Shown here: positions 19,706 to 57,412 of the stretch, one piece after another
How the letters are laid out: every line of letters begins with the position of its first letter
How positions within the stretch are numbered: position 1 is the stretch's first letter
Assembly (NCBI GenBank): GCA_050247435.1
Contig: JBFWUF010000044.1
Location: forward strand, 321 to 64,320
Origin: Blastocatellales bacterium
GTDB taxonomy: Bacteria > Acidobacteriota > Blastocatellia > RBC074
Direction: 5' to 3'
DNA: 64,000 bases
Position numbers and translations under genes: made by a program
Notes under the pieces: generated by a model
The model's input: the letters and a program-made list of their open reading frames with translations, nothing else
Database searches by the model: none
What the model was told of the DNA's origin: nothing

Positions 19706-19729
19706 TGGCTCCTCATGGATTAATGATGG

Positions 19730-23335: not shown

Positions 23336-23336
23336 T

Positions 23337-23362: not shown

Positions 23363-23373
23363 GCAGGAAGGTT

Positions 23374-28281: not shown

Positions 28282-28998
28282 GTGAGTGATCATTTGCCAA
28301 AAGCCATCGTGCTGCTGAGCGGAGGGCTTGATTCCGCAACGACATTGGCCATTGCCAAGAGTCAATGGTATGAAATCCACGCCCTTACTTTCAGATACGG
28401 ACAGCGGCATGAATTCGAAATTGAGGCGGCGCGAAAAATCGCTGGCCATTTTGGCGTAGCGCAGCATGTCATTTCACAGATTGATTTACGGGCGTTTAGG
28501 GGTTCAGCCTTGACCAGCGACATTGAAGTGCCGAAAGGGCGTTCGCTGGAGGATATGTCTGAAGGCATTCCCATCACATACGTACCCGCCCGAAACACGA
28601 TCTTTCTATCATTTGCGCTGGCGTGGGCCGAGGTGGTCGGGGCCAGCGACATCTTCATCGGCGTCAATGCGCTGGATTACAGTGGCTACCCGGACTGCCG
28701 ACCAGAATACATTGAGGCTTATCAAGAGATGGCGAACCTGGCTACGAAAGCCGGAGTCGAAGGCCGCCAGCGACTTAAGATTCACACTCCGCTTATCCAC
28801 CTGACAAAGGCCGAAATTATCCGACAGGGGCTTGAACTCGGGGTTGATTATTCTATAACCAGCACCTGTTATGACCCGTCATCAACGGGAGAAGCCTGTG
28901 GTCAGTGTGACGCTTGCTTTTTGCGGTTGAAAGGATTTGCGGAAAACGGCGTCCCTGATCCGGTGCGATACCGAACAGAGGCGAGACCGGGAGCGTGA
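28282..28998 (+). CDS. queC: 7-cyano-7-deazaguanine synthase QueC
   Basis: [12 protein letters not shown]-loop and C-terminal Zn site CGQCDAC. GTG start with a GAGGAGG RBS. Confidence 0.9.
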
Positions 28999-29636
28999 GC
29001 TACGCAGTCAAGGAAATTTATTACACGCTTCAGGGAGAGGGCGCGCAAACTGGGCGGGCAGCGGTCTTTTGTAGGTTTTCTGGTTGCAATCTTTGGTCCG
29101 GGCGCGAGGAAGACCGCGCTTCGGCCATCTGTCAGTTCTGCGATACAGATTTCGTCGGCACAGATGGGCCTGGTGGAGGGAAATTCTCATCCGCTCAAGA
29201 ATTGGCGCGCGCCGTTGCCTCAACCTGGGCTGCGCCACGTTCAACCCGATCACGACCATACGTCGTTTGCACTGGCGGGGAACCACTGCTGCAATTCGAT
29301 GAAGATTTAGTGTCAGCTTTCCACGCCCACGGATTCGAAGTCGCAATCGAGACAAATGGCACCCGATTGCCTCCTCACGGGATTGATTGGGTCTGTGTAA
29401 GCCCGAAAGCCGGGACCGAACTTCTTCTCCGCTCTGGCAACGAACTCAAACTGGTCTATCCTCAAGCGGGAGCGGAACCCGAAAACTTTCAAGACTTGGA
29501 TTTTCGGCACTTCTTTTTACAACCGATGGATGGGCCGGAAAGAAACGCCAATATTAATCTTGCAATCGAATATTGCCTGTTGCATCCTCAGTGGCGGCTA
29601 AGCCTACAGACTCACAAACTGCTTGGCCTCCCATAA
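28995..29636 (+). CDS. queE: 7-carboxy-7-deazaguanine synthase QueE (radical SAM, B. subtilis type)
   Basis: CX14CX2C cluster motif ([20 protein letters not shown]), YTLQGEG and CTGGEPL motifs. Start overlaps the queC stop. Confidence 0.85.
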
Positions 29637-29659
29637 CAGCGTGAGAAAAGGAGTTCCGG

Positions 29660-30022
29660 ATGGACGTATTCAAGATCTTCTCTATCGAAGCGGCCCATCG
29701 CTTGCCCCACGTTCCTCCGGATCATAAATGCGGCAGGTTGCATGGGCATTCATTCAAAGTAGAGATCCACGTTCGCGGCAAAGTCGGCAGCGAGACGGGC
29801 TGGGTGATGGATTTCGCCGACATCAAACAAGCGTTTCAACCAATCTTTGAGCAATTGGACCATCGCTATTTCAACGAAATCGAAGGGCTCGAAAACCCCA
29901 CGAGCGAAAACCTGGCAAGATGGATCTGGCGGCGATTGCATTCCACACTGCCCGGACTCAGTAAAATCATAGTAAACGAAACCTGCGCTTCCGGTTGTAT
30001 CTATCAAGGAGAGGATGACTGA
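29660..30022 (+). CDS. queD: 6-carboxy-5,6,7,8-tetrahydropterin synthase QueD
   Basis: CGRLHGHSF (C-x3-HGH) zinc motif. 120 aa. Confidence 0.85.
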   Translation: MDVFKIFSIEAAHRLPHVPPDHKCGRLHGHSFKVEIHVRGKVGSETGWVMDFADIKQAFQPIFEQLDHRYFNEIEGLENPTSENLARWIWRRLHSTLPGLSKIIVNETCASGCIYQGEDD

Positions 30023-30024
30023 AG

Positions 30025-30840
30025 ATGGATGACGTTCAGGGCTATCAGGACGAGCGCCGCATCCCGATTGATCAGGTCGGAGTCAGCGATCTGCGCTACC
30101 CTATCGTCGTGCTCGACCGTGATCAGGGGAAACAGCACACTATCGCTCGCCTGAAGATGTCCGTGAATTTGCCGCACCATTTCAAAGGCACACATATGAG
30201 CCGCTTCCTTGAAATCCTCAACGAACACAGAGGTGAAGTGACGATGCGGACTCTGCCTTTAATCCTCCGCGTATTGCGTGATCGCCTCGAAGCCGAGAGC
30301 GCGCGAATTGAGATCTCTTTCCCATATTTCCTGGAGCGAACCGCGCCCGTCAGCGAAGCCAAAGGTCTAATGGATTACAACTGCGCTTTTGTCGGTGAGG
30401 CCAACGGCAACAAGGACGATTTCATTCTCGGGGTGCAAGTTCCCGTGACCACACTCTGCCCGTGCAGCAAGACGATCAGCGATTACGGGGCGCATAATCA
30501 ACGCGGCTATGTCGGCATCGAGGTCCGCAGCGTGCGATCCGATAGCGGCAATCCAGAATTGATCTGGATCGAGGAATTGATAGACATCGCCGAAAGGTCG
30601 GCCTCCGCTCCGGTCTATCCGCTTCTCAAACGCGCGGATGAGCGACACGTTACGATGCAGGCGTATGACAATCCTGTCTTCGTCGAAGACCTGGTGCGGA
30701 ACGTGGCCGGCAGGTTGCAAGACGATAAACGGGTGGAGTGGTTTCGAGTAGATGTCGAAAACCACGAGAGCATCCACAATCATAATGTCTTTGCTCGAAT
30801 CGAAAGGAAAAGGCCTCCAACTGAGGAAAGAAGAGGGTGA
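30025..30840 (+). CDS. folE2: GTP cyclohydrolase FolE2/MptA (type-2 GTP cyclohydrolase I)
   Basis: FolE2 length, and TTLCPCSKTISDYGAHNQRGY with the CPCS motif. Confidence 0.8.
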   Translation: MDDVQGYQDERRIPIDQVGVSDLRYPIVVLDRDQGKQHTIARLKMSVNLPHHFKGTHMSRFLEILNEHRGEVTMRTLPLILRVLRDRLEAESARIEISFPYFLERTAPVSEAKGLMDYNCAFVGEANGNKDDFILGVQVPVTTLCPCSKTISDYGAHNQRGYVGIEVRSVRSDSGNPELIWIEELIDIAERSASAPVYPLLKRADERHVTMQAYDNPVFVEDLVRNVAGRLQDDKRVEWFRVDVENHESIHNHNVFARIERKRPPTEERRG

Positions 30841-31242
30841 GACTCGACGATGTACAGTTCGTTCCAGACCGTCGGATTACTCGAAACACAAGCTACTGGG
30901 ACAAGTTTCTGATCCTGGCCAATGCCCTTCAGGGTCAGGAATGACTTGCGATGGTGAAAGACAGAGGTTAATCTCGGTAACGAAGTTGGCGACCTACACT
31001 TCAATCTAATTTTAACGGGTCCAGCCTGGAGCAGTGCCTCACGATTTAACTGAAGCCCAGACCCGAGAGGCTATCAGGTCAACCACAGAAGCAATATGAG
31101 TCGAATATAGTACTCCAATACTTATCAGGAAAGCCCCGCCTGAATTGTGGATCCGCACCCTACGCCTAGCTTTGCAAATAGTTTTACGCCTTTCCTATCA
31201 CTGTTGAGATTTGTACTACAAAAGCAGCAAGAGGCAGTTCAT

Positions 31243-34200
31243 ATGAACGGTCGCATCGTTAAACACTCCCATCACGGCATTGGCAAGGTGGTCGGCGTGC
31301 AGCCTGGGCAGGTGAGAATCCGTTTCCTGAGCGGGCAAGAGATGGCATTCAAACCTCATGCCTTCAAAGATGGGATCCTCGCGCGTGCGAAATTGAGTGT
31401 GGGCAGCCGCTGCATCGGCCTAAATGGAGAATGCACAGTCAGACGCATCGCTGCTTTAGCCGGTGATGCTCCAATTGAATACGAGGTTACGTATGAAAGC
31501 GGATTGAGCGCCGTGGTAAGCGAAGTGGCGCTGACACCTTTACCCGGGCGAGGCGTGCAGGATCCCCTCCTTCAATTTGCCGGACTCGATCTGCAAAGTT
31601 ACGGGTTGTTCAGATTGAGGGAACGGCTCGTTAACGCAAATGCAAAATCGCTGCGCGAGGGGAGCGGGTTGCGTGCTCTGCTCTCCAGCCGCATTGATTT
31701 GCGTCCCCACCAGGCGTACGTCGCAGGCGTAGTGTTGCTCGATCTCTCCCGACGCTACCTTTTGGCCGACGAAGTCGGGCTTGGCAAGACAATAGAGGCT
31801 GGCATCGTTGTCCATGACCTTCTGACCACCAAGCCGGACGCCCGCGTGCTGGTAGTTTGCCCAAGCGCCTTAGCACAGCAGTGGTTGTGTGAACTCTACG
31901 CTAAGTTCGGGGGGCAGGTGTTTACACTCTTGGATTTGCACGCGGGCAAGAGGATTAACTGGCAGGGTTTGCAAAAAGTAATTGCCTCGACGACCTTGGC
32001 CGCCTATGACCTGTCGAAAGAATTGTCGAAGATTGCCTGGGACATAGTAGTGGTGGATGAAGCGCACCATCTGATCAACTCCCCCGTGCTTTATGAGTTT
32101 GTCCGTCAACTGTCCCGCTCGGTTCCTTCGCTTCTCCTGCTGAGCGCAATTCCGGCTCAACGGCGCGAAGACGATTTTCTGCGTTTGCTGGCACTGCTGG
32201 AGCCTGACCGTTATCAATCCGATTCCCGTAACTCTCAGGAGGAGTTTCGCACACTCTACTCAGCTCAAAGTGCCATTGGGCGCCGGTTACGCCGTCTGTC
32301 ACGCCGGATTGAAGGTGCTTCGTCAGGTGATTCGACGCCGGAGGAGGTAAAAGAGCTTACGCTGAGCCTGATGGAGTTGCCGGTCCTCAGCGAGGATAAA
32401 CGACTGAACAGCATGATCGCATTGCTTGAGACAGGCAAACAGGCTTTCATTGATGATGCGCGCGCTATCGTTCACTATGTCGCCGATCGCTACCGCATTC
32501 ACCGACGCATCCTTCGTAACCGCAAAACCCGGTTGATTGAGGAGGGCCAGATACAGTTGATTCAACGCCGTTTTGCGCCGTTCCCCTATCAACCGGAGCA
32601 GGTGGAGATCGAGTTTGTGGAAGCTGTCGAGGCCATTATTAGGGAACTTCGCCAAATGGAAGCCCAGAACGATGTAATTGTCCCTTTTGTTCGCACCGCC
32701 CTTCAGAGTTTGGTGCTGCCGACGACCGCGCGAGACTTCTTGGAGAGACTGGCTGATGCGGACTCGGGGAGGCTCAACAGCAAGGGGATGGATTATCTGG
32801 CGATGGGATACATGTTCGGTTATGAGGATTGGGAAGATTATGCCGAGTTGGTGTGTGTGGGAGTCCGGGGTTACCTTTCAGATGAACTGGCGGAGCACGC
32901 GCTGGCCCGCGCCACCGCTTGGTGCAGGTCTGCCAAAGCCGTTTCACGCTGGGGCGTACTCGTTAAACTCTTGAGGAGCCGACAACAGCAGACTCCTCTG
33001 CCCAAAATCCTTATCTTCGCTGGGTTCCCCGGCGCGGCGGAGGCCCTTGCTGAAAGGCTGCGCGCTGAATTCGGCAATCAGGCGGTGAAGGAATTCCGGT
33101 TCAATCTCTCACAAGAAGAGAAAGAACTGAGTGTGCGTCAATTTCAGACCAATCCAGCCACATGGCTATTGGTTTCGGATGAAACCGGCGGAGAGGGGAG
33201 GAATTTTCAGTTCGCCGCAGAATTGGTCCACTTCGATACCCCGTGGTATGCGGCGAGAGTCGAACAGCGGATCGGGCGATTAGACCGTCTGGGCCGTGAA
33301 AAGGTCAGATCGGACGTGGTCTCGAACGTCATCTTCAGCGAAGGTTCAGTAGAGGACGGACTGATATGTTGTTACCGCGCGGGAATGAAAGTCTATGAAC
33401 AGTCCATCAGCGGTCTGGAGTTCGCGTTGCGCGAAGTCGAACGTCGCATCGCAGAGGTGGTGATAGATCGGGGCTACGAAGGTTTGTGTGATTATGTCGA
33501 GGAGTTAAGCCAGTTGGCTGAGCAGGAGCGCGCGCAGGATGAGAGCGAGTCGGTGCTGGACGAGGCTTCATTTGAACTCAGGGCGGCAGAGCGATACCGC
33601 AAGATTTCCCACGCTCGGGATGGAGACAAACTACTGGAAGAAGCGTTCGTCAGCTATTTCCGCGGCATCTCCTCGGAGCGATCGGCCAAGGAGATTTATG
33701 ATCCGGCCTTCCCGCGCGGCATCTGGAAATTCGTGGTGGACGATGCGCGCTTTGGGCAACTTCCTTTCGCCGAACAGGGGGGTGACGGGCTGCAGGGAGA
33801 GGTGAAGGGAACCTTTCTCCGTGAGATCGCGCAGCAGCGGCCTGATTTGAACTTTTTCAACGTGGGAAATCCTTTCTTTGATGCTGTCATCCGGTCACTG
33901 GTGCTGCATCCGACTGGCCGCACCTACGCCATTGCCTGTTGCCTGGCGGGCCACGAACCTTGGATGGGCTTTGAGTATGTCTTCTTTGCCGCGCCCGATC
34001 TGAAGCCGCTGGCGAATAATTATGGGTTGGTAAATCAGGCGTTAGGTCTTTTTACTGCGCCGCCATTGCACCTGTTTTGCGACGGAGAGGGCAATTTCAC
34101 CGAGCGGGGAGGGGAACTGCTGGCCATCCGGAGCAAACTGAAGCTCGAACATAAGAACGGTTCGTGGTGGAATCTCACTAAGGAGAAATCGCAGTTATTG

Positions 34201-34479
34201 CCGCAGTCGTTCGGTCAGCGGGAATGGCCGGAGGCTGTGAGCCACACATACCAACTGGCGAAAGACAGAGCGCGACGTCTGTTTCGGCAGCGCCTAGCTT
34301 TAACACTTGAGGCAGAGACCGCGCGGATCGCCGAGCAGATCAGGCAGGCCAAAGGGCAGCCTGAAAGGTTCGCTGAAAATGAGACCGCAGCGCTGCTGCT
34401 CTTGCTCGATTCGATTACCAACTGGGGCGTCGAACTCGACAGCCTCAGCTTTCTCTCAATCAATGAAATAACGGTTTGA
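31243..34479 (+). CDS. SNF2/RapA-family helicase (DpdE-like position in the Dpd cluster)
   Basis: LADEVGLGKTIEAG (motif I), VVDEAHHL (DEAH), helicase-C motifs TGGEGRNFQ...LDRLGRE. The start is placed at MNGRIV. The 31147 track start adds a dubious N-terminal extension. Confidence 0.75.
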   Translation: MNGRIVKHSHHGIGKVVGVQPGQVRIRFLSGQEMAFKPHAFKDGILARAKLSVGSRCIGLNGECTVRRIAALAGDAPIEYEVTYESGLSAVVSEVALTPLPGRGVQDPLLQFAGLDLQSYGLFRLRERLVNANAKSLREGSGLRALLSSRIDLRPHQAYVAGVVLLDLSRRYLLADEVGLGKTIEAGIVVHDLLTTKPDARVLVVCPSALAQQWLCELYAKFGGQVFTLLDLHAGKRINWQGLQKVIASTTLAAYDLSKELSKIAWDIVVVDEAHHLINSPVLYEFVRQLSRSVPSLLLLSAIPAQRREDDFLRLLALLEPDRYQSDSRNSQEEFRTLYSAQSAIGRRLRRLSRRIEGASSGDSTPEEVKELTLSLMELPVLSEDKRLNSMIALLETGKQAFIDDARAIVHYVADRYRIHRRILRNRKTRLIEEGQIQLIQRRFAPFPYQPEQVEIEFVEAVEAIIRELRQMEAQNDVIVPFVRTALQSLVLPTTARDFLERLADADSGRLNSKGMDYLAMGYMFGYEDWEDYAELVCVGVRGYLSDELAEHALARATAWCRSAKAVSRWGVLVKLLRSRQQQTPLPKILIFAGFPGAAEALAERLRAEFGNQAVKEFRFNLSQEEKELSVRQFQTNPATWLLVSDETGGEGRNFQFAAELVHFDTPWYAARVEQRIGRLDRLGREKVRSDVVSNVIFSEGSVEDGLICCYRAGMKVYEQSISGLEFALREVERRIAEVVIDRGYEGLCDYVEELSQLAEQERAQDESESVLDEASFELRAAERYRKISHARDGDKLLEEAFVSYFRGISSERSAKEIYDPAFPRGIWKFVVDDARFGQLPFAEQGGDGLQGEVKGTFLREIAQQRPDLNFFNVGNPFFDAVIRSLVLHPTGRTYAIACCLAGHEPWMGFEYVFFAAPDLKPLANNYGLVNQALGLFTAPPLHLFCDGEGNFTERGGELLAIRSKLKLEHKNGSWWNLTKEKSQLLPQSFGQREWPEAVSHTYQLAKDRARRLFRQRLALTLEAETARIAEQIRQAKGQPERFAENETAALLLLLDSITNWGVELDSLSFLSINEITV

Positions 34480-36893
34480 ACAGTGCGATGAACTGGCTCG
34501 AAACTTTAAAGACAGCCCTTGAGCGGGGATCTCCGCCGGAGGTGATTCCTTCCCAACCGGGGATGGCAGACGCTTCAGATTATGCCGTCTGGCGCTTTCT
34601 GCAGGCGTGGCAGCTTGACCAGCAGTTGGGGCCTGATCAGGCTGTTCTCCTGCGCCAACTCGCCCGCTGGCGACATGGAAACTTATTCGTCGGCAAATTA
34701 CCAGCCGCACTCACATGCTATCAATCAAAAGTTGGGATTGAAGTAACTCCGGCAGGCAACCTTATCGCCAAACCTTTCAAGCCTTCATGGCTGGATGATG
34801 ACTATGTTGATGCTGCCACCGGAATTGATGCGCGCCCTGAGCCGCGACGTGAAGCAGAGGAAATCACCGCCGAACCTTATCTGAACTCATTAGGCTTTCG
34901 GATGTGGCAGTCACAGGCGCAAAAGGAGGGGGCTTGGCTCGCAGTCACGGCGCCGCCTGGTTCCACTTCGCTCATTACACTGCCGACAGGTTCAGGCAAG
35001 AGCCTGTGCTTTCAGTTGCTCTCCCGTTTTGGGAGCGGCGTCACCGTTGTCGTTGTGCCGACGGTCGCACTCGCCATGGATCAATGGCGCAGCGCCAAAG
35101 AAAGGCTAGGACATATTCCTGACCTTAATCCCCGCTACTTCGCGGCGAATGATCCAGATCTTGATCCTGAGACTGTATTGCGCGATTTGCGCGAGGGGCG
35201 CACACGACTGGTCTTCACCTCGCCCGAAGCATGCGTTTCAGGCCGTTTGCGCCGCGTGTTGGACCAGGCGGCGCGCAGCCACCGGCTGGAAAACCTGGTG
35301 ATTGACGAAGCGCATATGATCGAAAGCTGGGGTATGTACTTCAGGGTTGATTTCCAGCTGCTCGCGACGCTGCGCCGCAACTGGCTGCACGCTTCTGAGG
35401 CCTCGCTGCGCACGTTCCTGCTTTCCGCGACTTTCACTCCGCGCAGTCGCGAGGTGCTGCGCTCGCTGTTCGGAGACGGAGGAGAATGGCGCGAGTTCCT
35501 CAGCCAGCGATTGCGCCCTGAGATCACTTACTATTCACACAAATTCCATTCGGACGATGAGCGCACAGAGGCGGTGCGGGAGTGTGCGTGGCGACTGCCT
35601 CGCCCCGCGATCTATTACACGACGGAGGTTGAAGAGGCCAGGAGGTTCGCAGCCCTCTTTGCCCAAGAAGGCTTCAAGCATGTCGGCTGCTTTCATGGCG
35701 AGACGCCACCCACGGAACGCCGCTCGCTGCTTTCCCGCTGGCGCGCGGATGAAATTGACATCATGGTAGCCACTTCCGCTTTTGGCTTGGGCGTTGACAA
35801 GCCGGATGTGCGCGCGGTGGTTCATGCCTGTATGCCTGAAAGCATGCATCGTTACTATCAGGAAGTCGGGCGCAGCGGGCGAGACGGCTTCTCCTCAGTT
35901 TGCCTGCTCCTTCCGACCAGGAGAGACATTGAAGTGGCAAAAGGCCTTGCTCCAAAACTGTTAAGCGAAGAGACGGCGCAGCAACGCTGGGAGAGTATGT
36001 GGGCGAATCGTGAGACCGTCTCCGAAGACGAGTACATCTGGAAGCTGAGTCCAAACGCGCGGCGCACGGAACTGCTGGGGACGCGCACCGGTGAGGAGAA
36101 CGTCCGCTGGAACAAGCGGCTCATTCTGCAACTGTTGCGCGCGGGGAAACTGGAAGTGATGGACTTGGAAAATAGCTCGGAGGAAGGAATGAGCGAAGCG
36201 CTCGAATGGGTCAAAGTGCGGTTGCACTTTCCGCCCGCTTCTTCCAACGTCGGCAGCAGCATCTCGGCGCAGCGTGACGAAGAGTTGAGGCAGGCGAGTG
36301 AAGGCTTGGCGCAGGTGCAGGCGTACTTGGATGATCAGCAACCGGTCTGCCGGATACTTCAAAAACTTTACGACTGCTCAACGCGGCGAGTGTGCGGCGG
36401 TTGCCGCGCCTGTCGGCGCGCGGGCAAATCGTTCCAGAGTTGCCCGCATCTCGATTTTGAAGCCCACCCGCCCGGCAATCCTTCTCGTCAAGTCATCATC
36501 AACATTCCCGACCTATCGCGGGATAGAGAAGCGCTTGCTTGCCTGAAACTTTTACGAGATTTGGTCAAGCACAGAGGTATTCGCCGATTTGCCTGTGCGC
36601 CGAGGCACCAAGATTTAATTCTCGGATTGCTCGGCCAGGCGTTCAATGAAAACGACCTCCACCTCTACCGGCTTGATTCCTTGCCCTCTGAGCCTGCGTT
36701 CGATCTGCATCCTGATGAGGCAATAGCCTGCTTTCACGTCGGTGGGTTGAATCAAGCGGCGCTTGATTTCTCGCTGGGCAAGGAGGTCATTCACCTGATC
36801 TGTACCGGGGTGAGCCACGTTCGCGCTGACGGACGCTTTCCCGGTGAGGCCGCCGGATGGAGCTTCTATCCCGGCTTTGAATACTGGCGTTAG
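34476..36893 (+). CDS. RecQ-family DEAD/DEAH helicase (DpdF-like position)
   Basis: TLPTGSGKSLCFQL, VIDEAHMIESWG, SATFT, HACMPESMHRYYQEVGRSGRDG are RecQ-type motifs. TTG/ATG start overlapping the upstream stop. Confidence 0.75.
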   Translation: MNSAMNWLETLKTALERGSPPEVIPSQPGMADASDYAVWRFLQAWQLDQQLGPDQAVLLRQLARWRHGNLFVGKLPAALTCYQSKVGIEVTPAGNLIAKPFKPSWLDDDYVDAATGIDARPEPRREAEEITAEPYLNSLGFRMWQSQAQKEGAWLAVTAPPGSTSLITLPTGSGKSLCFQLLSRFGSGVTVVVVPTVALAMDQWRSAKERLGHIPDLNPRYFAANDPDLDPETVLRDLREGRTRLVFTSPEACVSGRLRRVLDQAARSHRLENLVIDEAHMIESWGMYFRVDFQLLATLRRNWLHASEASLRTFLLSATFTPRSREVLRSLFGDGGEWREFLSQRLRPEITYYSHKFHSDDERTEAVRECAWRLPRPAIYYTTEVEEARRFAALFAQEGFKHVGCFHGETPPTERRSLLSRWRADEIDIMVATSAFGLGVDKPDVRAVVHACMPESMHRYYQEVGRSGRDGFSSVCLLLPTRRDIEVAKGLAPKLLSEETAQQRWESMWANRETVSEDEYIWKLSPNARRTELLGTRTGEENVRWNKRLILQLLRAGKLEVMDLENSSEEGMSEALEWVKVRLHFPPASSNVGSSISAQRDEELRQASEGLAQVQAYLDDQQPVCRILQKLYDCSTRRVCGGCRACRRAGKSFQSCPHLDFEAHPPGNPSRQVIINIPDLSRDREALACLKLLRDLVKHRGIRRFACAPRHQDLILGLLGQAFNENDLHLYRLDSLPSEPAFDLHPDEAIACFHVGGLNQAALDFSLGKEVIHLICTGVSHVRADGRFPGEAAGWSFYPGFEYWR

Positions 36894-36907
36894 GAGAATA
36901 CAGATAG

Positions 36908-37771: not shown

Positions 37772-37773
37772 TT

Positions 37774-40839: not shown

Positions 40840-40849
40840 GGCGGAACTG

Positions 40850-41536: not shown

Positions 41537-41542
41537 ACTTTT

Positions 41543-46129: not shown

Positions 46130-46673
46130 GCAGGAGTTCCGCCAGGCGAGCCGTGACGTATGGTCGCACGGCAGCGGGCAGCAGTTGCGTGACCTGCTGG
46201 CTTCATCTCTGAGCACCCTGCTGCTGCTCGAAGGAGAGAAGCATGCATATTTTTCCAGCCCCTGGGTCTCCGACTTCGTCCTCTTCGAAAATCATTTCGG
46301 CCAGTTCAGCGCGCTCTTTCCCGAATTCGGCGATCAGACCGAAATCCGCTTCAGCGATTACCTGGTCTGTTTGGCGAAAAAGCTTCCGGTGAGGATCATC
46401 ACGACCAGCAGCGAGGTCTCCGCCGGTTTCCGTAGTCACCTGGAACTTCGTTCTTGCGCGCACATCCAGGTGCGAACCGCACCGGACGAATATCACGAGA
46501 AAGGCATTCTCGCGCCGTCCTTCTACATCGAGGGCTCGATGAATATCACTTACAGCGGAGTTTACGTCAGAGGGGAAAAAGTGACCTATCACTCGGCCGG
46601 AAATCCGCAAGGAGCAAGCAAAATTTCCGCCGCTTACTTGGAGTATGACCGCCGTTGGAGCATCCTGAAATAA
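46119..46673 (+). CDS. phospholipase-D-family (HKD-like) putative nuclease (DpdK-like position), 184 aa
   Basis: HEKGILAPSFYIEGSMNIT resembles HxK(x4)D(x6)GSxN, but with Pro in place of the Asp. A single HKD-like motif. Confidence 0.5.
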   Translation: MALEQEFRQASRDVWSHGSGQQLRDLLASSLSTLLLLEGEKHAYFSSPWVSDFVLFENHFGQFSALFPEFGDQTEIRFSDYLVCLAKKLPVRIITTSSEVSAGFRSHLELRSCAHIQVRTAPDEYHEKGILAPSFYIEGSMNITYSGVYVRGEKVTYHSAGNPQGASKISAAYLEYDRRWSILK

Positions 46674-48883
46674 AGAGTTTGTCTATGCTCACACCAGATC
46701 AAATCACCTTGCTGCGCCGGTTACAAGGCAATTGGCCGAAGCACCTCCAACTAACGTTTGATGAGCAGAACAGACCGGATCTTGCCGAGCATCCACTGGC
46801 CGGCGAACTACTGGCGCTGAGCCGCAGTGAGCGCACATCACTTCCATTTTTCACCCCCAACCGCCCAGACCGCATCATCTGGCTGACGATTGCGCCCAAT
46901 GCAGAAGAGCTGCAGTCGGCGATGGCGGACCTGCGCGCATGGCTGTTGCCCAGTTTCGGCTGGGAAGATGAGCCGCCAATTGTCGCACCAGGAGAATCTT
47001 CAGGCCCGTTGAGCGAAGTGCTGCGCGCGCTTTCGCCAGCAGGTTATTTCCGCTGGTGGACGATGCGGGCTGAATTTAGCCGCGCGGTCGGCAAACTTCG
47101 CGCGCTGCGCGACCTCGAGCAGCGTCGCCCGGCGCATGCCCACGCACGGCCTCCCTCACTCTTCGATTTGCGGCAGCAATACGATGTGGCGTTGCTGACG
47201 GGCGATGTTGAGGCGGCGCAGGAGGCGATTGACGGCATCAACCTTCATCAACTCGACACGGCGGCCAACACGTGCTTTATGCAGTTGCGCCTCTGGGACC
47301 ATTTCCGGGAGTACGAACGCATCGTCACTCACCCGCAACTTGCAGAGTTGGTTCGGTTGCGCATGCCGCACAGCATCCGTCTGGCCGTCATACGCGGCTT
47401 CCACGCGCACTTTCTTGCGCCGCTGGAAGAGCGCGGGGAGATCCAATCTGCCGCGAGCGTCTACGCTGAACGTGTTCACGACTCCTTGACAGGGTTACTC
47501 GAACTTTGCCGCCCCTCGGACGGGATTGAGACCAGGCGCTGCATCGGCTATAAAGCCTGGCTTTTGCAGGATGGAAATCAGGCAAGTCAGTTGTGCAAGG
47601 ATTATCAGGACGAAATGCTCGATCAACTCCTTGCGCCGCTCGCTTTGCCCGAAGCTCTCCAGCCTTCAATTCACGATTGTTTTTACACCGCCCTCCGGCG
47701 CGGCGACTGGAGGGCCGTTCAAGAGGCTGGGCAGCAATTGCTGTTGGAGGAGGTCGAAGGAGAAGCTGGTTTCAGGCGGGAGTATTTGCAGGGCGTTTTG
47801 CGCCTCAGTTTGGAATTTCACGCTAATCCGGGCCTCGGTGAATTGCTTGGAAAATCACAGCTGCCATCCACGCCTGTACCGGCCCTGGTCGTGCCGCAAA
47901 CGTGGCCGGATTTTGTGGCACGGATCAAAGAAAAAGAATGGTCGGGCGCAGACCACTTCCTGACGCTGGATAACAGGCCCTCACTCGGCGATTTAAGTCT
48001 GCCTGAACTGAGCCAAGTGGTTGAAGGTTTGGAAGAGTTGCTGACCGACCCTGACATTCACCGTGATCAGACTGGTCACCAGTTGGCGCTCGGCAGCCTG
48101 CCAGTCATCATCAAAGACTTCCTCCTCGACCCTGAATTCCCGCGCTCCTACCTTAGCAATTTGTATCGCCAACTGCTTCAACTCTGGTGTGGACAGAAGC
48201 GTGGCTCGGCCTCACCGCCTGACGCCAATCTTGTGTTGACATTGGCAGAGGCAGTTTTGCGGCTCGACAGCACATCTGAGCGCGAAGTGGCGGAGGTGAT
48301 CCGCGACTGGTGGGCGGCGCGCAGAGCGCGCGTTATGTTGCCGTTCCTCTTAAGTGGGCTGGATATCCTTTCAGAATTGACCCCTGAAAGGATTGTCACC
48401 GAAAGTCTGTGGGTGGACGGCGCGGCTCTCATCCGCCTTGACCCGCTTGCCTTTTCCCTCGGAGAGCGACAATTGTGGCGTGTTATCGGCAGCCGCATCG
48501 GACTTGATGAGAGTACGATCGATGATTTCCTCGGCATTGAATCAGCGGCTGAGAATGAAGAGCCTGACCCTCTGGCGGAAGCCGATTTGAAGAAGGTGGC
48601 CATCGTTTCGCTGCGCGAAGAGGCGGCACACGCGGCTGCGGCCCTGATCGGGCAGCGGTCAAAAGCGCAGGTGTTGGTGGTGAGCGAAACGCACGCCGGC
48701 GTCCAGACAGCGAGCGCCAAGACCGCGGACGTTATCCTTTTTGTATGGGCCAGTAGCACTCACGCTGTTTATCGTGCTTTCGACGGAGTGCGGGAGAAAT
48801 TGTCATACGTTCAAGGCAAGGGGGCAGCCAGCATCGTCCTCGCGCTCGAACGTTGGGTGATAAAGCAGCGGGAATCAATATAG
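46655..48883 (+). CDS. large hypothetical protein (742 aa), last gene of the plus-strand Dpd-like operon (possible DpdD-like component)
   Basis: Start overlaps the previous gene. No motif recognised. Confidence 0.45.
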   Translation: MEHPEIKSLSMLTPDQITLLRRLQGNWPKHLQLTFDEQNRPDLAEHPLAGELLALSRSERTSLPFFTPNRPDRIIWLTIAPNAEELQSAMADLRAWLLPSFGWEDEPPIVAPGESSGPLSEVLRALSPAGYFRWWTMRAEFSRAVGKLRALRDLEQRRPAHAHARPPSLFDLRQQYDVALLTGDVEAAQEAIDGINLHQLDTAANTCFMQLRLWDHFREYERIVTHPQLAELVRLRMPHSIRLAVIRGFHAHFLAPLEERGEIQSAASVYAERVHDSLTGLLELCRPSDGIETRRCIGYKAWLLQDGNQASQLCKDYQDEMLDQLLAPLALPEALQPSIHDCFYTALRRGDWRAVQEAGQQLLLEEVEGEAGFRREYLQGVLRLSLEFHANPGLGELLGKSQLPSTPVPALVVPQTWPDFVARIKEKEWSGADHFLTLDNRPSLGDLSLPELSQVVEGLEELLTDPDIHRDQTGHQLALGSLPVIIKDFLLDPEFPRSYLSNLYRQLLQLWCGQKRGSASPPDANLVLTLAEAVLRLDSTSEREVAEVIRDWWAARRARVMLPFLLSGLDILSELTPERIVTESLWVDGAALIRLDPLAFSLGERQLWRVIGSRIGLDESTIDDFLGIESAAENEEPDPLAEADLKKVAIVSLREEAAHAAAALIGQRSKAQVLVVSETHAGVQTASAKTADVILFVWASSTHAVYRAFDGVREKLSYVQGKGAASIVLALERWVIKQRESI

Positions 48884-48943
48884 ATCCGCGCGAGATCACT
48901 CCTGTAGGATGGATTGCCACAGCCTATCGATGTGCTATTCGTG

Positions 48944-50134
48944 CTATTGGTCCGCTCCGCTATGAAACAAGACAGGCTGTGAAGTCACTTCTTTCGTCAT
49001 CCCTTTGCTCTCCTGATTCCAAACCAGGCTCTTATACTGCACCAGCAGGTAATTTGAGAGTAGTTGTATATCCTTAGATGTATTTTGAATCTCGTTCCAC
49101 TTGCGCTGACAGCCAGGGCCGAAATCCCAATATCCATCAGTCCACCTGCAGACTTCTCGTATCGGCTCGAGGTCGGCGGCGAACTGATTTTCAGTCGGAA
49201 TGGTCATTCGGCGATGACGCTCCGCGATGGCATCCATCAGAAACCCTAAGCTGATGATTCCTGCTCCATGTACCAGCCGAGAACGGCGTGGTGGCAAATC
49301 CCACGCCTGATCGAAGACCTTCCTGACTGCCCCCCAATAATTCCGCAGTACATTCATGATACTGTCTACGTCACCAGGGCCGTCTGGCGTGTAACGAAAG
49401 CGATAAAGAACCCCGTCGCTCAGACTGTTCTCCAACATCTTGAGAATGGAATTATCCTTGATATTCCCTAGTGGAGTGGTTGGAGTTTGGATACGTCCTT
49501 TGAGTGGAGAGTCTTCTTCGTGATTGAGTAGATCAAGCAGGTAGGCGGGAAAACGTCGGCGTTGTAGCAAGTTTGGCAACGCAGCTTCCGTGTTCGGGAG
49601 CAGTTCGTAAATCAATCCCTTCGGCAAGGGCTTAGTGGAATTGACCAAAATGAATTGCTCAGTTTGTTCGTGAACTTCGCTTGTAATAAACGCAGTGACG
49701 CAGATCGGGAACGATTCAATATCAGCGTCACGAATCGCGGCCAGACGTTGTTGGCCATCTACGATGAAGCCCGGTTTGTCTTCAGACGCGAGGTTAGTAT
49801 CAATCGGAATGATTAGCGTCCCGATTCTGGTGTATGCAATTGTAGACATTGATTCGCTAGATGTTTCAAAGCGGATGCGGGTATCGAAAGCAATTACAAC
49901 GGCATTGGGTACCATTGGAGATTCGCTTTCAAGGTAGTTCCTGATCTCCGCTATGTGTGAAAGCACTTCTGGGCGTTGATACCCACTCAGGCTGTTTCCC
50001 TCCTCGCGGCGGATGCGGGAAACAGTAGCAAAATTTGAAATCAGTTTGCCATCAATGGCGAAACTGTACAGCAAGCGATCCGCCCCTTGTCGCACTTCAA
50101 TGGCCGGAACTCGTAGTTCAGTTAGACCAGACAT
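48944..50134 (-). CDS. dpdB: DGQHR-domain protein (DndB/DpdB-like), paralog 1
   Basis: GFIVDGQQRLAAI (DGQHR signature, here DGQQR) and GYQRPEV motif. Directly downstream of and coupled to dpdA. Confidence 0.7.
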   Translation of the reverse strand: MSGLTELRVPAIEVRQGADRLLYSFAIDGKLISNFATVSRIRREEGNSLSGYQRPEVLSHIAEIRNYLESESPMVPNAVVIAFDTRIRFETSSESMSTIAYTRIGTLIIPIDTNLASEDKPGFIVDGQQRLAAIRDADIESFPICVTAFITSEVHEQTEQFILVNSTKPLPKGLIYELLPNTEAALPNLLQRRRFPAYLLDLLNHEEDSPLKGRIQTPTTPLGNIKDNSILKMLENSLSDGVLYRFRYTPDGPGDVDSIMNVLRNYWGAVRKVFDQAWDLPPRRSRLVHGAGIISLGFLMDAIAERHRRMTIPTENQFAADLEPIREVCRWTDGYWDFGPGCQRKWNEIQNTSKDIQLLSNYLLVQYKSLVWNQESKGMTKEVTSQPVLFHSGADQ

Positions 50135-51430
50135 TCAAATTATCTCCTGTTTGTTGGGTGATTCGATCCAGGCTGTGACGCCACTGCATTCTGAGATCTT
50201 TTCGGTGAGGATTCCCAGTTCACGCTGTAACCTGCGATAAAAAACCCAGACATTGTGCAGGCCGCGTCGCCGATTGCGCTCAGCGCCTCGGAACAAGATG
50301 ACGTGATAGCCGATGCGCTGGCAAACATCACAGGGGCAGTGCAACCAGGGGCGATTCGTCAATACTTCCCTGTAAGTTTCCTGCATATCACGCCCCGGTT
50401 CGCAAAAATGATCGTAAGCAATAATTGCCTCAAGCGTTTGGTCAAGAGTGTATTCACCTATATCAAACTTTTTCAGTGCAGTTAGACAAGCCTTTTCAAG
50501 CTTACGAGCGTGATCTTGCGAAACCTGCCCCGATTTGATCCGCTTTTGTAATTGCGGATTACCTTCCACTTGTGGAACCCTAATGGCACTGTAAGTTCGA
50601 TCCATCGTATAAAAATTATCTTTCTCATCCTTAAATGCCTGTCGCAATGGTGAGGTGCTGTCGAAACTCGAGACGCCATAACCTATGAACGTTGGCAAAT
50701 GATCCGTGCGCGTTACACCGAGTAAATGCAGTTTTGTTTTTGGCTCTCTCACGTCAGCAATGGCAGCTAAGCAAGAAACGATCTCTTTCGTTTTCAGCGG
50801 TACCATGCCGCCGAGGGCAATGTATGTATAACCAATTCGCTGAAGCGATTGGACTGCACGTGCATAAGATAAAGGGCTCCATCCTTGGGCAACGCCAACT
50901 GGCTCAAAATCGAGTCTTAATGCGCGATGCCTAGCCAAAAACTCTGAAGCCAGTTGCAACGTGATTTCCTGGCGGCGAACAAATTCTGCCGGGACGGCAT
51001 CAGTTGCATTATCAAGATTCGCTTGATACGCAAGAATCACATGATCAACGGAGATTCCGTAATTGAACTCGCATTCGACATAAAACCGTATCACCTCATC
51101 AACTGTATAAGGAGGAACCTCCTCGCGCACGTAGGTGAAAGCTCCGCAGTCTCCCATAATCGGAAGATTGCGGGAACCTGTTCTGAAGAACTCAGGCGCG
51201 CCGACTCTCAGAAGTCTGTGCCGCTGGGCCATTGTGTAACGGCTGCCGTTGTTGCCGTAACCATCAACAATCCCTTTGGAAACGAGTAGTCCATCATAAG
51301 CCGCAGACGAAAACACTTCGTGAGCGTACATATCATCCCGATGACGCACGCGATCAGGAGAGCGATTCTCCTTCTCGAAGTCGAAACTAGGATCAACAAA
51401 GTCTTGACTATCCGGGAAAAAGAACTTCAT
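50135..51430 (-). CDS. dpdA: tRNA-guanine-transglycosylase-family DNA-guanine transglycosylase DpdA
   Basis: TGT hallmarks: LHLLGVTRTDHLP, FDSTSP, the zinc site CPCDVC...H, and YIALGGMVP. Encoded beside preQ0 synthesis genes and DGQHR proteins. Confidence 0.75.
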   Translation of the reverse strand: MKFFFPDSQDFVDPSFDFEKENRSPDRVRHRDDMYAHEVFSSAAYDGLLVSKGIVDGYGNNGSRYTMAQRHRLLRVGAPEFFRTGSRNLPIMGDCGAFTYVREEVPPYTVDEVIRFYVECEFNYGISVDHVILAYQANLDNATDAVPAEFVRRQEITLQLASEFLARHRALRLDFEPVGVAQGWSPLSYARAVQSLQRIGYTYIALGGMVPLKTKEIVSCLAAIADVREPKTKLHLLGVTRTDHLPTFIGYGVSSFDSTSPLRQAFKDEKDNFYTMDRTYSAIRVPQVEGNPQLQKRIKSGQVSQDHARKLEKACLTALKKFDIGEYTLDQTLEAIIAYDHFCEPGRDMQETYREVLTNRPWLHCPCDVCQRIGYHVILFRGAERNRRRGLHNVWVFYRRLQRELGILTEKISECSGVTAWIESPNKQEII

Positions 51431-52581
51431 TAACTAACCTTTCGTTTGTTGAGATATGCGCGAATCAGAAAATTGGACAACATGCGATGGTGAGTGGGCA
51501 AATTCTGAATTTCATTCCAGCGCAGACCGCCTAATCCCTCCCACACACCTCCAGTCCAGCGGCAGAAAGGTTGGATGCGTCCGAGTTCACGCTTGACCAT
51601 GGCCTGTGCTCTAGGGGCCTCCAGTTCGATCATCGGCATCACTCTGTCCATTAGTCGCCCCATCGCGCGAATCCCAACTCCATGCATCAAGCGACTCTTT
51701 TCCGGTCTTAACCCCCATGCCTCAGGGAAGGTGTCTCTGACAGCACTCCAATAGATGGTGAGTAAAGAGCGGACGCTGCTGAAATCAGTCACCCCAGTTG
51801 CCACATTGCGGAAGGGGAAGAGCACACCAGATGGCGAACTGAAGCTCTCCTGGAGCATTTTGATGATAACGGTATCTGTTACTACCGCCGTTTCTAGTTT
51901 CGCTTCGCTGGAAGAGGCTCTTCTGATCAATCCACAAAAAGGAGATTCGGGGTCCTGGTTGAGCAGTTCGCAAAGTGCTGACGGAACTTTTCGTGCCGCG
52001 AGATTAGCCGGTAAGGTGGTTGAAACTTCTGGCAGTAGTTCATCAATGAGTCCGCGTGGCAAAGGCCTTGTCGTGTTTACTCTCAGGAACTGGTCCCGCT
52101 GAAGATCCAAGTTGTCTGCAACGAAAGCATTGATAGGGACTGGAAATCCACTCCTCTTCTCTTTGCTTTGGGTGAGGGCCAGCGTGCGCTGTTGCCCGTC
52201 TACTATCCAAGCCGGTTTTGTCTCGCCAGGCTGTGGCAAAGGAATTTCAAGAGTCCCTGTCACCGCGCCACCTTTATCAACTTTAGGCCCCCTGCTCTCT
52301 CTAAACACTACATCAGACGAAAGTGCCAAAATAACAGAGTTGGGAAAGATCACCGTTCCACTGTCCAGATAGTCAACAATGTTCTGAATATGACGCTTAA
52401 CTTCGGGGCGTTGGTAACCAATCAGTTTCCCCTTTTCATCGCGCGAGACGCGGGAGATATCAGCGATTTGAAGTATCTCGTCTCCACTGAGTGAGAACAG
52501 ATAGAGTGGGTGTGCAGGGTCTTGATCAATACGCAACGCGCGTCGGCGGAGCATGGCAGGGCGTTTAATTTTCATCATCAA
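51430..52581 (-). CDS. dpdB: DGQHR-domain protein (DndB/DpdB-like), paralog 2
   Basis: AWIVDGQQRTLAL and GYQRPEV. Homologous over its full length to paralog 1 (shared motifs VN.T.PLP.GLI.ELLP, SRL.HG.GI, CRWT.G.W, W.EIQN). Immediately upstream of dpdA. Confidence 0.7.
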   Translation of the reverse strand: MMMKIKRPAMLRRRALRIDQDPAHPLYLFSLSGDEILQIADISRVSRDEKGKLIGYQRPEVKRHIQNIVDYLDSGTVIFPNSVILALSSDVVFRESRGPKVDKGGAVTGTLEIPLPQPGETKPAWIVDGQQRTLALTQSKEKRSGFPVPINAFVADNLDLQRDQFLRVNTTRPLPRGLIDELLPEVSTTLPANLAARKVPSALCELLNQDPESPFCGLIRRASSSEAKLETAVVTDTVIIKMLQESFSSPSGVLFPFRNVATGVTDFSSVRSLLTIYWSAVRDTFPEAWGLRPEKSRLMHGVGIRAMGRLMDRVMPMIELEAPRAQAMVKRELGRIQPFCRWTGGVWEGLGGLRWNEIQNLPTHHRMLSNFLIRAYLNKRKVS

Positions 52582-53537
52582 TCTCCTCTGACTTCCCAGT
52601 AAAGTTCCTTAAACCTGCTTTGTTCACAGGCAAAACCGCTGTCCCTCAGCCTTCTTAGAAGCATACTGCAACTTAACTGTGGAGTGGATTTCAGATTGAC
52701 CTTCACGAATTGTCGTACTTGGCGGTCTGTAATTTGCTGACGTTGAAAATTTTCTCTCTGCGGAGATTTCGCGATCAACGCCTCAATTCGTTTTCCGACA
52801 GTTTTGGCGTCAAAGCCCCAGGAATTTACTTTCTTCAGGATCAGGGACGCGACCCGTGCATGCAGCGAAACGCAACTGCCACCAAGGCGGGACTGTAACC
52901 GAGCACTTGAGCAAACAGAATGATGGCGTAATAACCCATTAGTGAGTTTAGAGGGTGAGGTCACAATCATCAATCTTTCTGGCGATGCGAGCGCCAACAG
53001 TGCAGACTGTAAATCCTTCTCAACTGCTGATAGGTAGTATGGAGACGCCACCAGTAGGAAATATGACCTCCTGGAGTTCATAAGAAGATCCGTCAATGAA
53101 TGCGGTTCGTCTTTACCACCGCCAGCGAATTGACACAAACTCCCCCACCAAGTCTGAAGCATGGGATCACGTGGTTGCTCTGGTATCGCGGTAGCGGTGA
53201 CAGAATCCAATTCATCGCTTGCGAAAGTGGCGGAGTATGGATGAATACAGGCGCTGGCCGGAACCAGACCATACCCAGCAGACATTATCCAGAGACTTGG
53301 CTTAAACCCAACTTCCTGTGCTAGAGTCGGCAACTCTTTAGTGACTACCCAGTGTTCACCGGCGTACAACCGCTCTGCTGCTGTCGTCGTCCCCCGATGA
53401 TCTGCCAGCCGACGGCACCACTCATGTACTCTGCTTTCTATATCATCGGTAGTAACGGTCCGAAGTTGCAGATCATTCGACACCGGCGCGGTTTTCCGGT
53501 TGGAGCAACTTACAATGATTTGCAGCGAAGGCTTCAT
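52578..53537 (-). CDS. hypothetical protein, first gene of the minus-strand dpd operon (possible DpdC-like)
   Basis: Overlaps the next gene's start (ATGA). No motif recognised. The AT-rich 450-bp region upstream is a likely promoter. Confidence 0.4.
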   Translation of the reverse strand: MKPSLQIIVSCSNRKTAPVSNDLQLRTVTTDDIESRVHEWCRRLADHRGTTTAAERLYAGEHWVVTKELPTLAQEVGFKPSLWIMSAGYGLVPASACIHPYSATFASDELDSVTATAIPEQPRDPMLQTWWGSLCQFAGGGKDEPHSLTDLLMNSRRSYFLLVASPYYLSAVEKDLQSALLALASPERLMIVTSPSKLTNGLLRHHSVCSSARLQSRLGGSCVSLHARVASLILKKVNSWGFDAKTVGKRIEALIAKSPQRENFQRQQITDRQVRQFVKVNLKSTPQLSCSMLLRRLRDSGFACEQSRFKELYWEVRGD

Positions 53538-56319: not shown

Positions 56320-56563
56320 GCTCGTCCACTCGGGCTTTTAGATGCCGAGCGTCTTTGAGCATCTCTATCAATACGGAGATGAAGATTGACTCCATCGGAT
56401 CGGGGTTGGAGGACTGCACCCCGGCCTGCACGTGCAGACGCGCGCGCTCGAAGATGTCGTCGAAGAGTTCCTGGTCCTGTTTGCGCAGCGTGCGGCGAAA
56501 CTTACTCAGCCGCTTCTGCTGGTCGGCTAGAACTATGCTGTATGGAGAGACAGTCCGCCCCAT
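56288..56563 (-). CDS. small helical hypothetical protein (91 aa) between the RecA-like gene and polB
   Basis: Strong RBS GGAGGTGGA. Its 3' end overlaps the polB start region. Confidence 0.55.
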   Translation of the reverse strand: MGRTVSPYSIVLADQQKRLSKFRRTLRKQDQELFDDIFERARLHVQAGVQSSNPDPMESIFISVLIEMLKDARHLKARVDELEKELRDAKK

Positions 56564-56653
56564 TCCACCTCCAATCGAGATGCAAAGAAGTTCACGGGGG
56601 TCGGGGCACAGAGCTTAAAGAGTCTTTGTCGAGAGTTTGACGATAACGCCCAA

Positions 56654-57244: not shown

Positions 57245-57412
57245 AACAATACCTCCCACGATATCGAACTTCTCGCGCCCGCGAACCCACTTGAACCGTA
57301 TACCCGAAATTTTGACGCGTGTTGGAGCGCCAATGACAACTGATGTGAATCTCGATTGATGGCTAAAAACGAAAGAGTGATGAGAAATTAGCGAAACATA
57401 GCTGAAATTGCA

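Follow-up and report, generated by a model that had tools for sequence, protein, structure and literature searches.

An intact Dpd-type 7-deazaguanine restriction-modification island with two DpdB paralogues, predicted in a Blastocatellales bacterium

We report the computational analysis of a 25-kb gene island, positions 28282-53537 of a 64,000-nucleotide (nt) stretch of DNA from a Blastocatellales bacterium (Acidobacteriota; contig JBFWUF010000044.1), the whole of which is referred to here as the window. Judged by the content, order and conserved motifs of its genes, the island is very probably an intact and self-sufficient Dpd 7-deazaguanine restriction-modification (R-M) system of the kind already described, and its predicted genes place it in a common subtype in which two DpdB ATPases accompany the DNA-guanine transglycosylase DpdA. 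To our knowledge, Dpd is the largest R-M system described, and we know of no Dpd biochemistry so far on any system other than that of Salmonella, which has a single DpdB. An earlier examination of the letters and their open reading frames (ORFs), the sequence-only reading, had already recognised the gene content and order of such a system, and the protein profiles, the known DpdA structure and the gene order of a related plasmid now agree with it.

The island is filled by sixteen tightly packed long ORFs, twelve on the plus strand and four on the minus strand, and it extends from the start of queC at 28282 to the start of dpdC at 53537; the ORF listing shows these limits, and the ORF positions given with them in the sequence-only reading, to be exact. 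On the plus strand the order is queC-queE-queD-folE2, a gap of 402 nt and then dpdE-F-G-H-(I)-J-K-D, while the minus-strand genes, in the direction of their transcription, run dpdC-dpdB2-dpdA-dpdB1, so that the two sets run towards each other and meet at a spacer of 60 nt (48884-48943). The packing of the minus-strand operon, where dpdC and dpdB2 overlap by 4 nt, dpdB2 and dpdA by 1 nt, and dpdA and dpdB1 abut (0 nt), is so tight that it suggests translational coupling. By the ORF listing and the motif checks, no island ORF carries a frameshift and no gene looks like a pseudogene. A search of the island ends found no tRNA gene, and the only direct repeats bracketing the island were chance matches of 12-13 nt, with no att-like repeat among them.

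Three sets of profiles were utilised to classify the proteins: the NCBIfam equivalog models with their curated cut-offs, the PADLOC subfamily models and Pfam. Fifteen of the sixteen genes match Dpd or Que profiles over nearly their full length (NCBIfam, PADLOC), the exception being a protein of 228 amino acids in the position of DpdI, and the Dpd E-values in the first two sets, which range from 1e-17 (DpdG) to 0 (DpdJ), lie far beyond chance. The Dpd profiles account for DpdA, DpdB (twice), DpdC, DpdD, DpdE, DpdF, DpdG, DpdH, DpdJ and DpdK; of the complete dpdA-K set that had been claimed, every letter except DpdI is thus borne out by a profile. All NTPase and nuclease motifs that were checked in DpdB1, DpdB2, DpdE, DpdF, DpdH, DpdJ and DpdK are present. 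The families A, B, C, D, E, F, G, H, J and K are the same as those of the Dpd system of Salmonella enterica serovar Montevideo (PMC10164549; review PMC5699537). Among plasmids, a tblastn search returned 17 records, the best of which, Enterobacter cloacae pPOL9A (NZ_CP086409.1), has in its annotation by the Prokaryotic Genome Annotation Pipeline (PGAP) the same layout, dpdE-F-G-H-(unnamed, 282 amino acids)-J-K-D convergent with (dpdC)-dpdA-dpdB. This plasmid differs in having a single DpdB, in listing no que genes beside the dpd genes and in the sequences of its proteins, which are 27-51% identical to those of the window.

DpdA (431 amino acids; minus strand, 50135-51430) is predicted to be the DNA-guanine transglycosylase that inserts preQ0. 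It scores 575.5 bits on the DpdA model NF041059, for which the cut-off is 200, and in an alignment to the S. Montevideo DpdA crystal structure 7UI4 of the Protein Data Bank, a chain of 436 residues, it covers residues 24-433 of that chain with an E-value of 5e-132. Taking the roles of the residues in the S. Montevideo enzyme from its structural paper (PMC10164549), the general acid/base Asp95 and the nucleophile Asp256 are conserved in the window as D94 and D257, D130 as D129, the residues that stack on the base, Phe99 and Leu236, as F98 and L237, and Phe265, which is proposed to sit close to the site of modification within the minor groove, as F266; the preQ0-selective loop G206-L211 (GGMVPL) is conserved as well. 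The CxCxxC..H zinc site that had been described as intact consists of C365, C367, C370 and H392, and in an alignment of 23 sequences these four ligands and the GGMVPL loop are invariant in the clade. The protein is 50.4% identical to the Enterobacter DpdA and, at about 50%, is set apart from the enterobacterial type. DpdA homologues number in thousands and annotations of DpdA from Acidobacteriota are already public; what the window provides is a full Dpd island in Blastocatellia, from a phylum that is absent from the eight phyla of a 2025 survey.

Upstream of the restriction operon lie four genes that, by their strong orthology, would give the island its own source of preQ0. These are queC, encoding preQ0 synthase (238 amino acids; plus strand, 28282-28998; TIGR00364, 218 bits, cut-off 150), with a CxxCxxC motif at residue 206; queE, encoding 7-carboxy-7-deazaguanine synthase of the radical SAM Cx14CxxC type (213 amino acids; plus strand, 28995-29636; TIGR04508, 359.6 bits, cut-off 240), which overlaps queC by 4 nt and in which the Cx14CxxC motif begins at residue 31; queD, encoding 6-carboxytetrahydropterin synthase (120 amino acids; plus strand, 29660-30022; TIGR03367, 112.9 bits, cut-off 89); and folE2, encoding GTP cyclohydrolase IB (271 amino acids; plus strand, 30025-30840; NF010200, 285.6 bits, cut-off 215). 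Their assignment as preQ0 genes, with all four NCBIfam scores above the cut-offs, upholds the sequence-only reading, in which folE2-queD-queE-queC was the order of the pathway; on the map the order is queC-queE-queD-folE2. The S. Montevideo system differs from the window, where the island contains all four preQ0 genes and uses FolE2 instead of FolE.

The que genes are ordinary orthologues of the preQ0 pathway, and DpdA has a weak match to the Pfam TGT family (22.7 bits against a cut-off of 26.3, E 5.8e-5), both of which would be expected if a cluster for queuosine or archaeosine in tRNA, made up of que genes and a tRNA-guanine transglycosylase (TGT), merely lay beside unrelated repair or replication helicases. 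Against the 575 bits on the DpdA model, however, the protein reaches only 20 bits on the tRNA TGT model TIGR00449 (cut-off 47.6) and 24 bits on that for archaeal TgtA, TIGR00432 (cut-off 350), so that it is not a canonical tRNA TGT by these models, and it matches the DNA-guanine transglycosylase 7UI4 from end to end. There is no queF, queA, queG or tRNA TGT gene in the region, the helicases score hundreds of bits higher on the Dpd profiles than on the RapA, RecQ, DrmD, DrmA and DruE models, and the canonical dpd gene order is kept. The probability that we attach to a tRNA pathway is vanishingly small, and this explanation is effectively already refuted; the Dpd assignment is retained in what follows.

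The minus-strand operon contains two DpdB genes, one on each side of dpdA. DpdB1, a ParB-like ATPase of 396 amino acids (minus strand, 48944-50134), is the canonical DpdB orthologue; it scores 492.5 bits on NF041060 (cut-off 300), is 51% identical to the annotated DpdB of Enterobacter and occupies the same slot downstream of dpdA. DpdB2 (383 amino acids; minus strand, 51430-52581; 417.3 bits on the same model) is a divergent paralogue lying between dpdC and dpdA, where the S. Montevideo system has no second DpdB, and it is 38% identical both to DpdB1 and to the Enterobacter protein. An NTPase motif, DGQQR, which is also that of the S. Montevideo DpdB, is found at residue 126 of DpdB1 and residue 128 of DpdB2, and the proline-rich linker between the domains is kept as TKPLP in the former and TRPLP in the latter; both proteins are accordingly of a make-up from which active ATPases are predicted. 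The sequence-only reading had placed DGQHR proteins beside the transglycosylase; the family holds, and their identity is corrected to that of two DpdB paralogues flanking dpdA. Both match the DndB family of Pfam and the DGQHR domain model, and they have a ParB-like NTPase motif in common with DndB and SspE of the Dnd/Ssp systems and with the ParB CTPases. Unlike those systems, however, the window lacks dndACDE and sspABCD, and the mark is a deazaguanine base instead of a backbone sulfur. The nicking motif EHxxP of SspE, which was sought as a hint of a sensor or nuclease, is absent from DpdB1, from DpdB2 and from all 57 orthologues of the latter in the related loci described below.

The first gene of this operon, dpdC (319 amino acids; minus strand, 52578-53537), is predicted to encode the enzyme that converts dPreQ0 to 7-amido-7-deazaguanine, and the candidate put forward earlier is confirmed by the PADLOC DpdC profile (E 7.7e-82). 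No NCBIfam model matches it; there is a weak match to DUF6884, and the Enterobacter plasmid has, upstream of its dpdA, an unnamed gene to whose product DpdC shows 28% identity (E 7e-35).

How widespread this arrangement is was examined in related loci. The exact DpdA sequence of the window had no entry in an assembly index, and an earlier scan of a genome collection with the single DpdA protein confirmed no relative; a profile-based DpdA scan of one genome per species, over about 185,000 species, succeeded and confirmed 532, of which the closest 80 loci are used in the comparisons. These span Myxococcota, Acidobacteriota, Actinomycetota, Planctomycetota, Gemmatimonadota and other phyla, and the module with que genes recurs among them in many phyla, typically in the order que genes-dpdC-dpdB2-dpdA-dpdB1. 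In the 75 loci with enough upstream sequence for the layout to be judged, a DpdB-like gene lies immediately upstream of dpdA in 57, and in 15 that place is taken by dpdC. Two-DpdB modules, for example those of Sorangium sp. So ce375 and of the metagenome-assembled genome (MAG) JAJVHZ010000095, share with the window the que genes and dpdC-dpdB2-dpdA-dpdB1, and they occur in Myxococcota, Acidobacteriota, Actinomycetota, Planctomycetota and others. The island is in this respect a representative of the commoner layout, since most loci nearest its DpdA carry two DpdB ATPases.

In a neighbour-joining tree the 58 upstream DpdB copies, that of the window included, form one clade and every downstream copy falls outside it; mean identity is 58% inside each group and 38% across the groups. 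The first match to DGxxR is DGQQR in 54 of the 57 upstream copies and 69 of the 76 downstream copies. When the DpdA tree is rooted on the Enterobacter protein, parsimony requires six changes between the two layouts, and the history of DpdB2 is read as a single early acquisition that was lost again about four or five times. The six changes and the single clade together indicate that DpdB2 is a conserved orthogroup and yet one that some lineages can do without. The GATOR-GC survey had already counted extra dpdB copies (801 in 2,335 unique islands), and in the literature searched we found no functional treatment of them. Since the Salmonella DpdB is a homodimer (PMC10164549), a heterodimer of DpdB1 and DpdB2 is a reasonable, if hypothetical, idea.

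The eight plus-strand genes that follow folE2 form the putative restriction operon. DpdE, a helicase of the SNF2 family, has 1078 amino acids (plus strand, 31243-34479), the size given previously, provided that translation starts at the ATG at 31243; the frame is open back to a GTG at 31147, and the shorter form is preferred because gene calls on near-identical contigs use the same start (the contig L088, for one, has a call of 1078 amino acids). The protein scores 765 bits on the PADLOC model PDLC02844, in a match that begins at residue 33 of the long ORF, and has an NCBIfam E-value of 1.7e-132, with GLGKT at residue 213 and DEAH at 304. The RecQ-like helicase of the sequence-only reading is DpdF, a superfamily 2 (SF2) enzyme of 801 amino acids (plus strand, 34488-36893, from the ATG at 34488; the ORF opens with a TTG at 34476) with 586.5 bits on the NCBIfam DpdF model (cut-off 550), GSGKS at 174 and DEAH at 277, and gene calls of 801 amino acids are also present on the contigs L087 and L088. 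The protein of 287 amino acids is DpdG (plus strand, 36908-37771), matched by NCBIfam below the cut-off (E 3.9e-17) and by PADLOC (E 9.5e-6); Pfam PF28110 (DpdG) is recorded for the protein of 287 amino acids in the same position on contigs 98.6-99.4% identical in DNA to the window. The P-loop NTPase of 1021 amino acids is DpdH (plus strand, 37774-40839), of the AAA_16/STAND-like type, which matches PADLOC PDLC02880 from end to end with 698 bits (NCBIfam E 3.8e-99) and has the Walker A sequence GDPGTGKS at residues 76-83.

Beyond the DpdI position lies dpdJ, encoding an SF2 helicase of the YprA family (1528 amino acids; plus strand, 41543-46129) with 1182 bits on the NCBIfam DpdJ model (cut-off 800), 1267 bits in PADLOC, GAGKT at 201 and DEVH at 401. 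It had been described as a DEAD/DUF1998 helicase, of which the first half stands, with Pfam matches to DEAD and Helicase_C beside the DpdJ profile, and the second does not: DUF1998 gives no Pfam match, and in place of a four-cysteine domain there is only a cluster of C1411, C1415 and C1418 near the C-terminus. This agrees with the statement of a preprint that the canonical Dpd helicases have lost the DUF1998 cysteine cluster. The PLD-like protein is DpdK, a predicted nuclease of the phospholipase D (PLD) family (184 amino acids; plus strand, 46119-46673; NCBIfam DpdK 103.7 bits, cut-off 100; PADLOC 198), in which H126-x-K128...GSMN lines up with its counterpart in the Enterobacter protein annotated as DpdK. 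The protein of 742 amino acids that had been left unnamed is now identified as DpdD (plus strand, 46655-48883) by PADLOC PDLC02830 (E 6.5e-120), with an NCBIfam E-value of 4.5e-54 over profile positions 28-702 of 704, and Pfam PF28109 (DpdD) is recorded on its 95%-identical orthologue in the contig L001, which belongs to the MAG JAJVHZ010000095.

Helicases of these families are common to DISARM, BREX, Druantia and BRIGADE, and the question arises whether the operon belongs to a different defence system built around helicases (DISARM, BREX or BRIGADE-like), into which a deazaguanine module was recruited. DpdE resembles BrxHII and DrmD and matches the DrmD and BrxH models, DpdJ matches DrmA and DruE with lower scores, and published work assigns DpdJ to the YprA family along with DISARM and Druantia and likens DpdH plus DpdI to BrxC. 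The Dpd-specific profiles score far higher, however: 765 bits for DpdE against 165 on BrxHI and 139 on the best DrmD model, 1267 for DpdJ against 60 on DruE, and DpdE, DpdF and DpdJ all score far lower on RapA, RecQ, DrmD, DrmA and DruE than on the Dpd models. The operon has no PglX or DrmMI methyltransferase, no PglZ and no second YprA helicase, self-marking in Dpd is by base exchange and not by methylation, and BRIGADE is reported only from halophilic archaea. Recruitment of the module by such a system is considered highly improbable, and a Dpd restriction operon remains the reading that we adopt.

The gene between dpdH and dpdJ, for an all-helical protein of 228 amino acids (plus strand, 40850-41536), is placed by position only. 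Against the Enterobacter positional analogue, a protein of 282 amino acids that PGAP also leaves unnamed, the pairwise match is marginal (E 1e-3), and hhalign with a profile of 13 homologues gave a probability of 0.1%, which is not significant. The protein is nevertheless kept in its slot in the related contigs, 98% identical in L001 and L007 and 28-33% identical in L014, L042 and L071, and P0241, which is 100% identical to it, sits in the DpdI slot on eleven metagenomic contigs. In the GATOR-GC survey dpdI and dpdD are the least consistently detected of the dpd genes. The label DpdI is a positional one, given here for slot and size.

The two operons of the island have had different histories. 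DNA identities were taken from blastn against related contigs, including L001, L009 and L087-L092. Parts of the restriction operon within 31238-47146 are 97.9-99.5% identical to six Logan metagenome contigs; its segment 41159-48876 is 95.4% identical to L001, a MAG labelled Gammaproteobacteria in which DpdI, DpdJ, DpdK and DpdD are 95-98% identical in amino acids to those of the window, and 44641-48867 is 88.8% identical to L009, an acidobacterial MAG. The modification operon, in contrast, is only 76% identical to L001 (48945-53727) and 66-68% identical to L003, L008 and L009. The breakpoints between the levels of identity coincide with the ends of the operons: homology to L088, for example, starts at 31238, just upstream of the start of dpdE, and the gene upstream of it in that contig is queC, not folE2. 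The guanine-cytosine (GC) content is 49.8% in the modification operon, 53.5% in the que genes, 57.0% in the restriction operon and 55-59% in the regions flanking the island. In L001 an Mrr-like gene, which the window lacks, lies between dpdB1 and dpdD. The contig L003 (Joint Genome Institute 3300069200, contig Ga0621827_0000001), at 12597-18086, has que genes and dpdC-dpdB2-dpdA-dpdB1 followed by genes for PLD, AAA_16 and DUF87 proteins, an unannotated gene of 440 amino acids and a third DndB-like gene, with no dpdD-K; this set of genes may take the part of dpdD-K as the restriction partner of the deazaguanine mark. The unequal levels of identity, the GC contents and the partners in L003 lead us to conclude that each operon evidently travels and recombines as a cassette of its own.

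Such mobility raises the alternative that the island is a recent chimera, in which the modification half works and the dpdE-D operon, derived from another lineage, is mismatched or silent or has been kept for another role. Besides the divergence in identity and GC content, and the different company kept by the modification genes in L003, this would fit the position of the que genes, which in most two-DpdB loci adjoin dpdC, directly upstream of it, and in the window stand upstream of dpdE. Speaking against it, the eight restriction genes are each complete in length and keep their motifs, and the same convergent pairing of the operons occurs in L001 and L007 and in the Enterobacter plasmid. We regard such a chimera as unlikely, though it is the most serious of the alternatives, and we continue to favour a working island.

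Several observations nonetheless weigh against an intact and self-sufficient Dpd island. Four NCBIfam scores lie under the equivalog cut-offs (DpdE 443 against 500, DpdG 62 against 80, DpdH 333 against 450 and DpdD 184 against 300), a further respect in which the restriction proteins differ from the enterobacterial type. The DpdE, DpdH and DpdD matches span essentially the whole profile and the PADLOC models fit well, DpdG being weak in PADLOC too, and the low scores are read as divergence from the enterobacterial seeds and not as membership of another family. The protein of 228 amino acids gives no DpdI profile match in NCBIfam or PADLOC even at E<=10. The base-contacting His181 of the S. Montevideo DpdA is Gln182 in the window, the only difference among the functional residues mapped, and the glutamine is invariant in the 23 sequences of the clade. 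In the intergenic regions the counts of promoters and terminators are at or below the shuffled expectation, with no such signal above chance, and an Rfam scan of the whole window returned nothing at gathering scores, neither a described preQ1 riboswitch nor any other curated RNA. Finally, modification and restriction operons differ clearly in history and GC content, and their functional match is assumed.

The following mechanism may be proposed for the island by analogy with the S. Montevideo system. FolE2, QueD, QueE and QueC, as their strong orthology implies, would convert GTP to preQ0. DpdA would then put preQ0 in the place of a guanine of double-stranded DNA, using a double displacement of the TGT type through a covalent Asp intermediate, with Asp257 as the likely nucleophile and Asp94 as the likely general acid/base, given the conservation of the catalytic residues, and this base exchange would need ATP hydrolysis by ParB-like DpdB, here DpdB1 and DpdB2. 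DpdC is expected to hydrate the nitrile of the DNA-bound preQ0 to yield 7-amido-7-deazaguanine (dADG). In S. Montevideo, DpdA swaps guanine for preQ0 in duplex DNA in dependence on ATP hydrolysis by DpdB, and DpdC turns DNA-bound preQ0 into ADG independently of DpdA and DpdB (PMC10164549). Incoming DNA without the mark would be restricted by the eight-gene dpdE-D operon, with its three SF2 helicases, P-loop NTPase, PLD-family nuclease candidate and three further proteins; DpdK is the obvious nuclease candidate, with DpdE, DpdF and DpdJ as putative translocases and DpdH as a possible P-loop switch. Salmonella genetics has shown that dpdD-K restrict unmodified DNA, and we found no published mechanism for this restriction in the literature searched. 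The island itself would have been pieced together from modules that travel separately, its low-GC modification operon having come to lie beside a restriction operon that is near-identical in other metagenomic genomes.

One more intact copy leaves the question of the mechanism of Dpd restriction unchanged. The natural module swap seen here, with one restriction operon, 95-99% identical from genome to genome, joined to divergent modification operons, does have a bearing on what restriction recognises, be it the modified base or a sequence motif. We tentatively suggest, as a proposal that is more doubtful than probable, that the two-DpdB module is a distinct and widespread subtype in which DpdB1 and DpdB2 either act jointly, for example as a heterodimeric clamp, or split the work between the loading of DpdA and another step, and that the near-identical restriction operon, standing beside a modification operon diverged by 24% in DNA, is a portable plug-in cassette that reads the modified base itself and not a sequence motif peculiar to one module.

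The island lies between mobile and defence modules on its left and a PolB cassette on its right, as had been accurately described. On the left, all on the minus strand, the region 10406-17124 resembles a mobile element and encodes a paralogue of the DNA polymerase III beta clamp, a Rad52/22-like annealing protein, an NrdG-like radical SAM activase and two tyrosine recombinases, the ORFs of which (13833-16469 and 16066-17124) overlap. At 18095-21034 an IetA/IteA-like AAA+ ATPase of 536 amino acids (PADLOC IetA, E 2.5e-20) stands beside a protein of 434 amino acids with no family match, and the two may be an IetAS-like defence pair. In the region 21776-27502 a protein of 1242 amino acids (23774-27502) has an Eco57I/MAD2-like N6-adenine methyltransferase region joined to the N-terminal half of an SNF2/ResIII helicase, and after a gap of 438 nt a protein of 519 amino acids (21776-23335) carries the Helicase_C half, which is DrmD-like; the pair is either a fusion enzyme that has been split or disrupted or a defence module of two genes. 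A repeat of 78 nt, 82% identical between its copies, is found at 21102-21179 and 21768-21845.

To the right of the island, on the minus strand at 53995-57259, a family-B DNA polymerase of 774 amino acids (NF004416, E 5e-122, below the cut-off) is encoded downstream of a RecA/Rad51-like protein of 201 amino acids and an ORF of 91 amino acids. This PolB cassette separates the island from apparently chromosomal genes and was not seen beside the dpd genes in relatives. The genes that follow include PSCyt2/PSD1 and DUF1501 genes, the best named homologues of the latter being 76-78% identical and from Blastocatellia MAGs. The PSCyt2/PSD1 and DUF1501 genes had brought a planctomycete host to mind, which was rejected in view of these homologues; they point to a host that is probably an acidobacterium. 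A separate direct repeat of 64 nt, 91% identical between its copies at 57413-57476 and 63645-63708, brackets a saccharopine-dehydrogenase-like gene together with the PSCyt2/PSD1 and DUF1501 genes.

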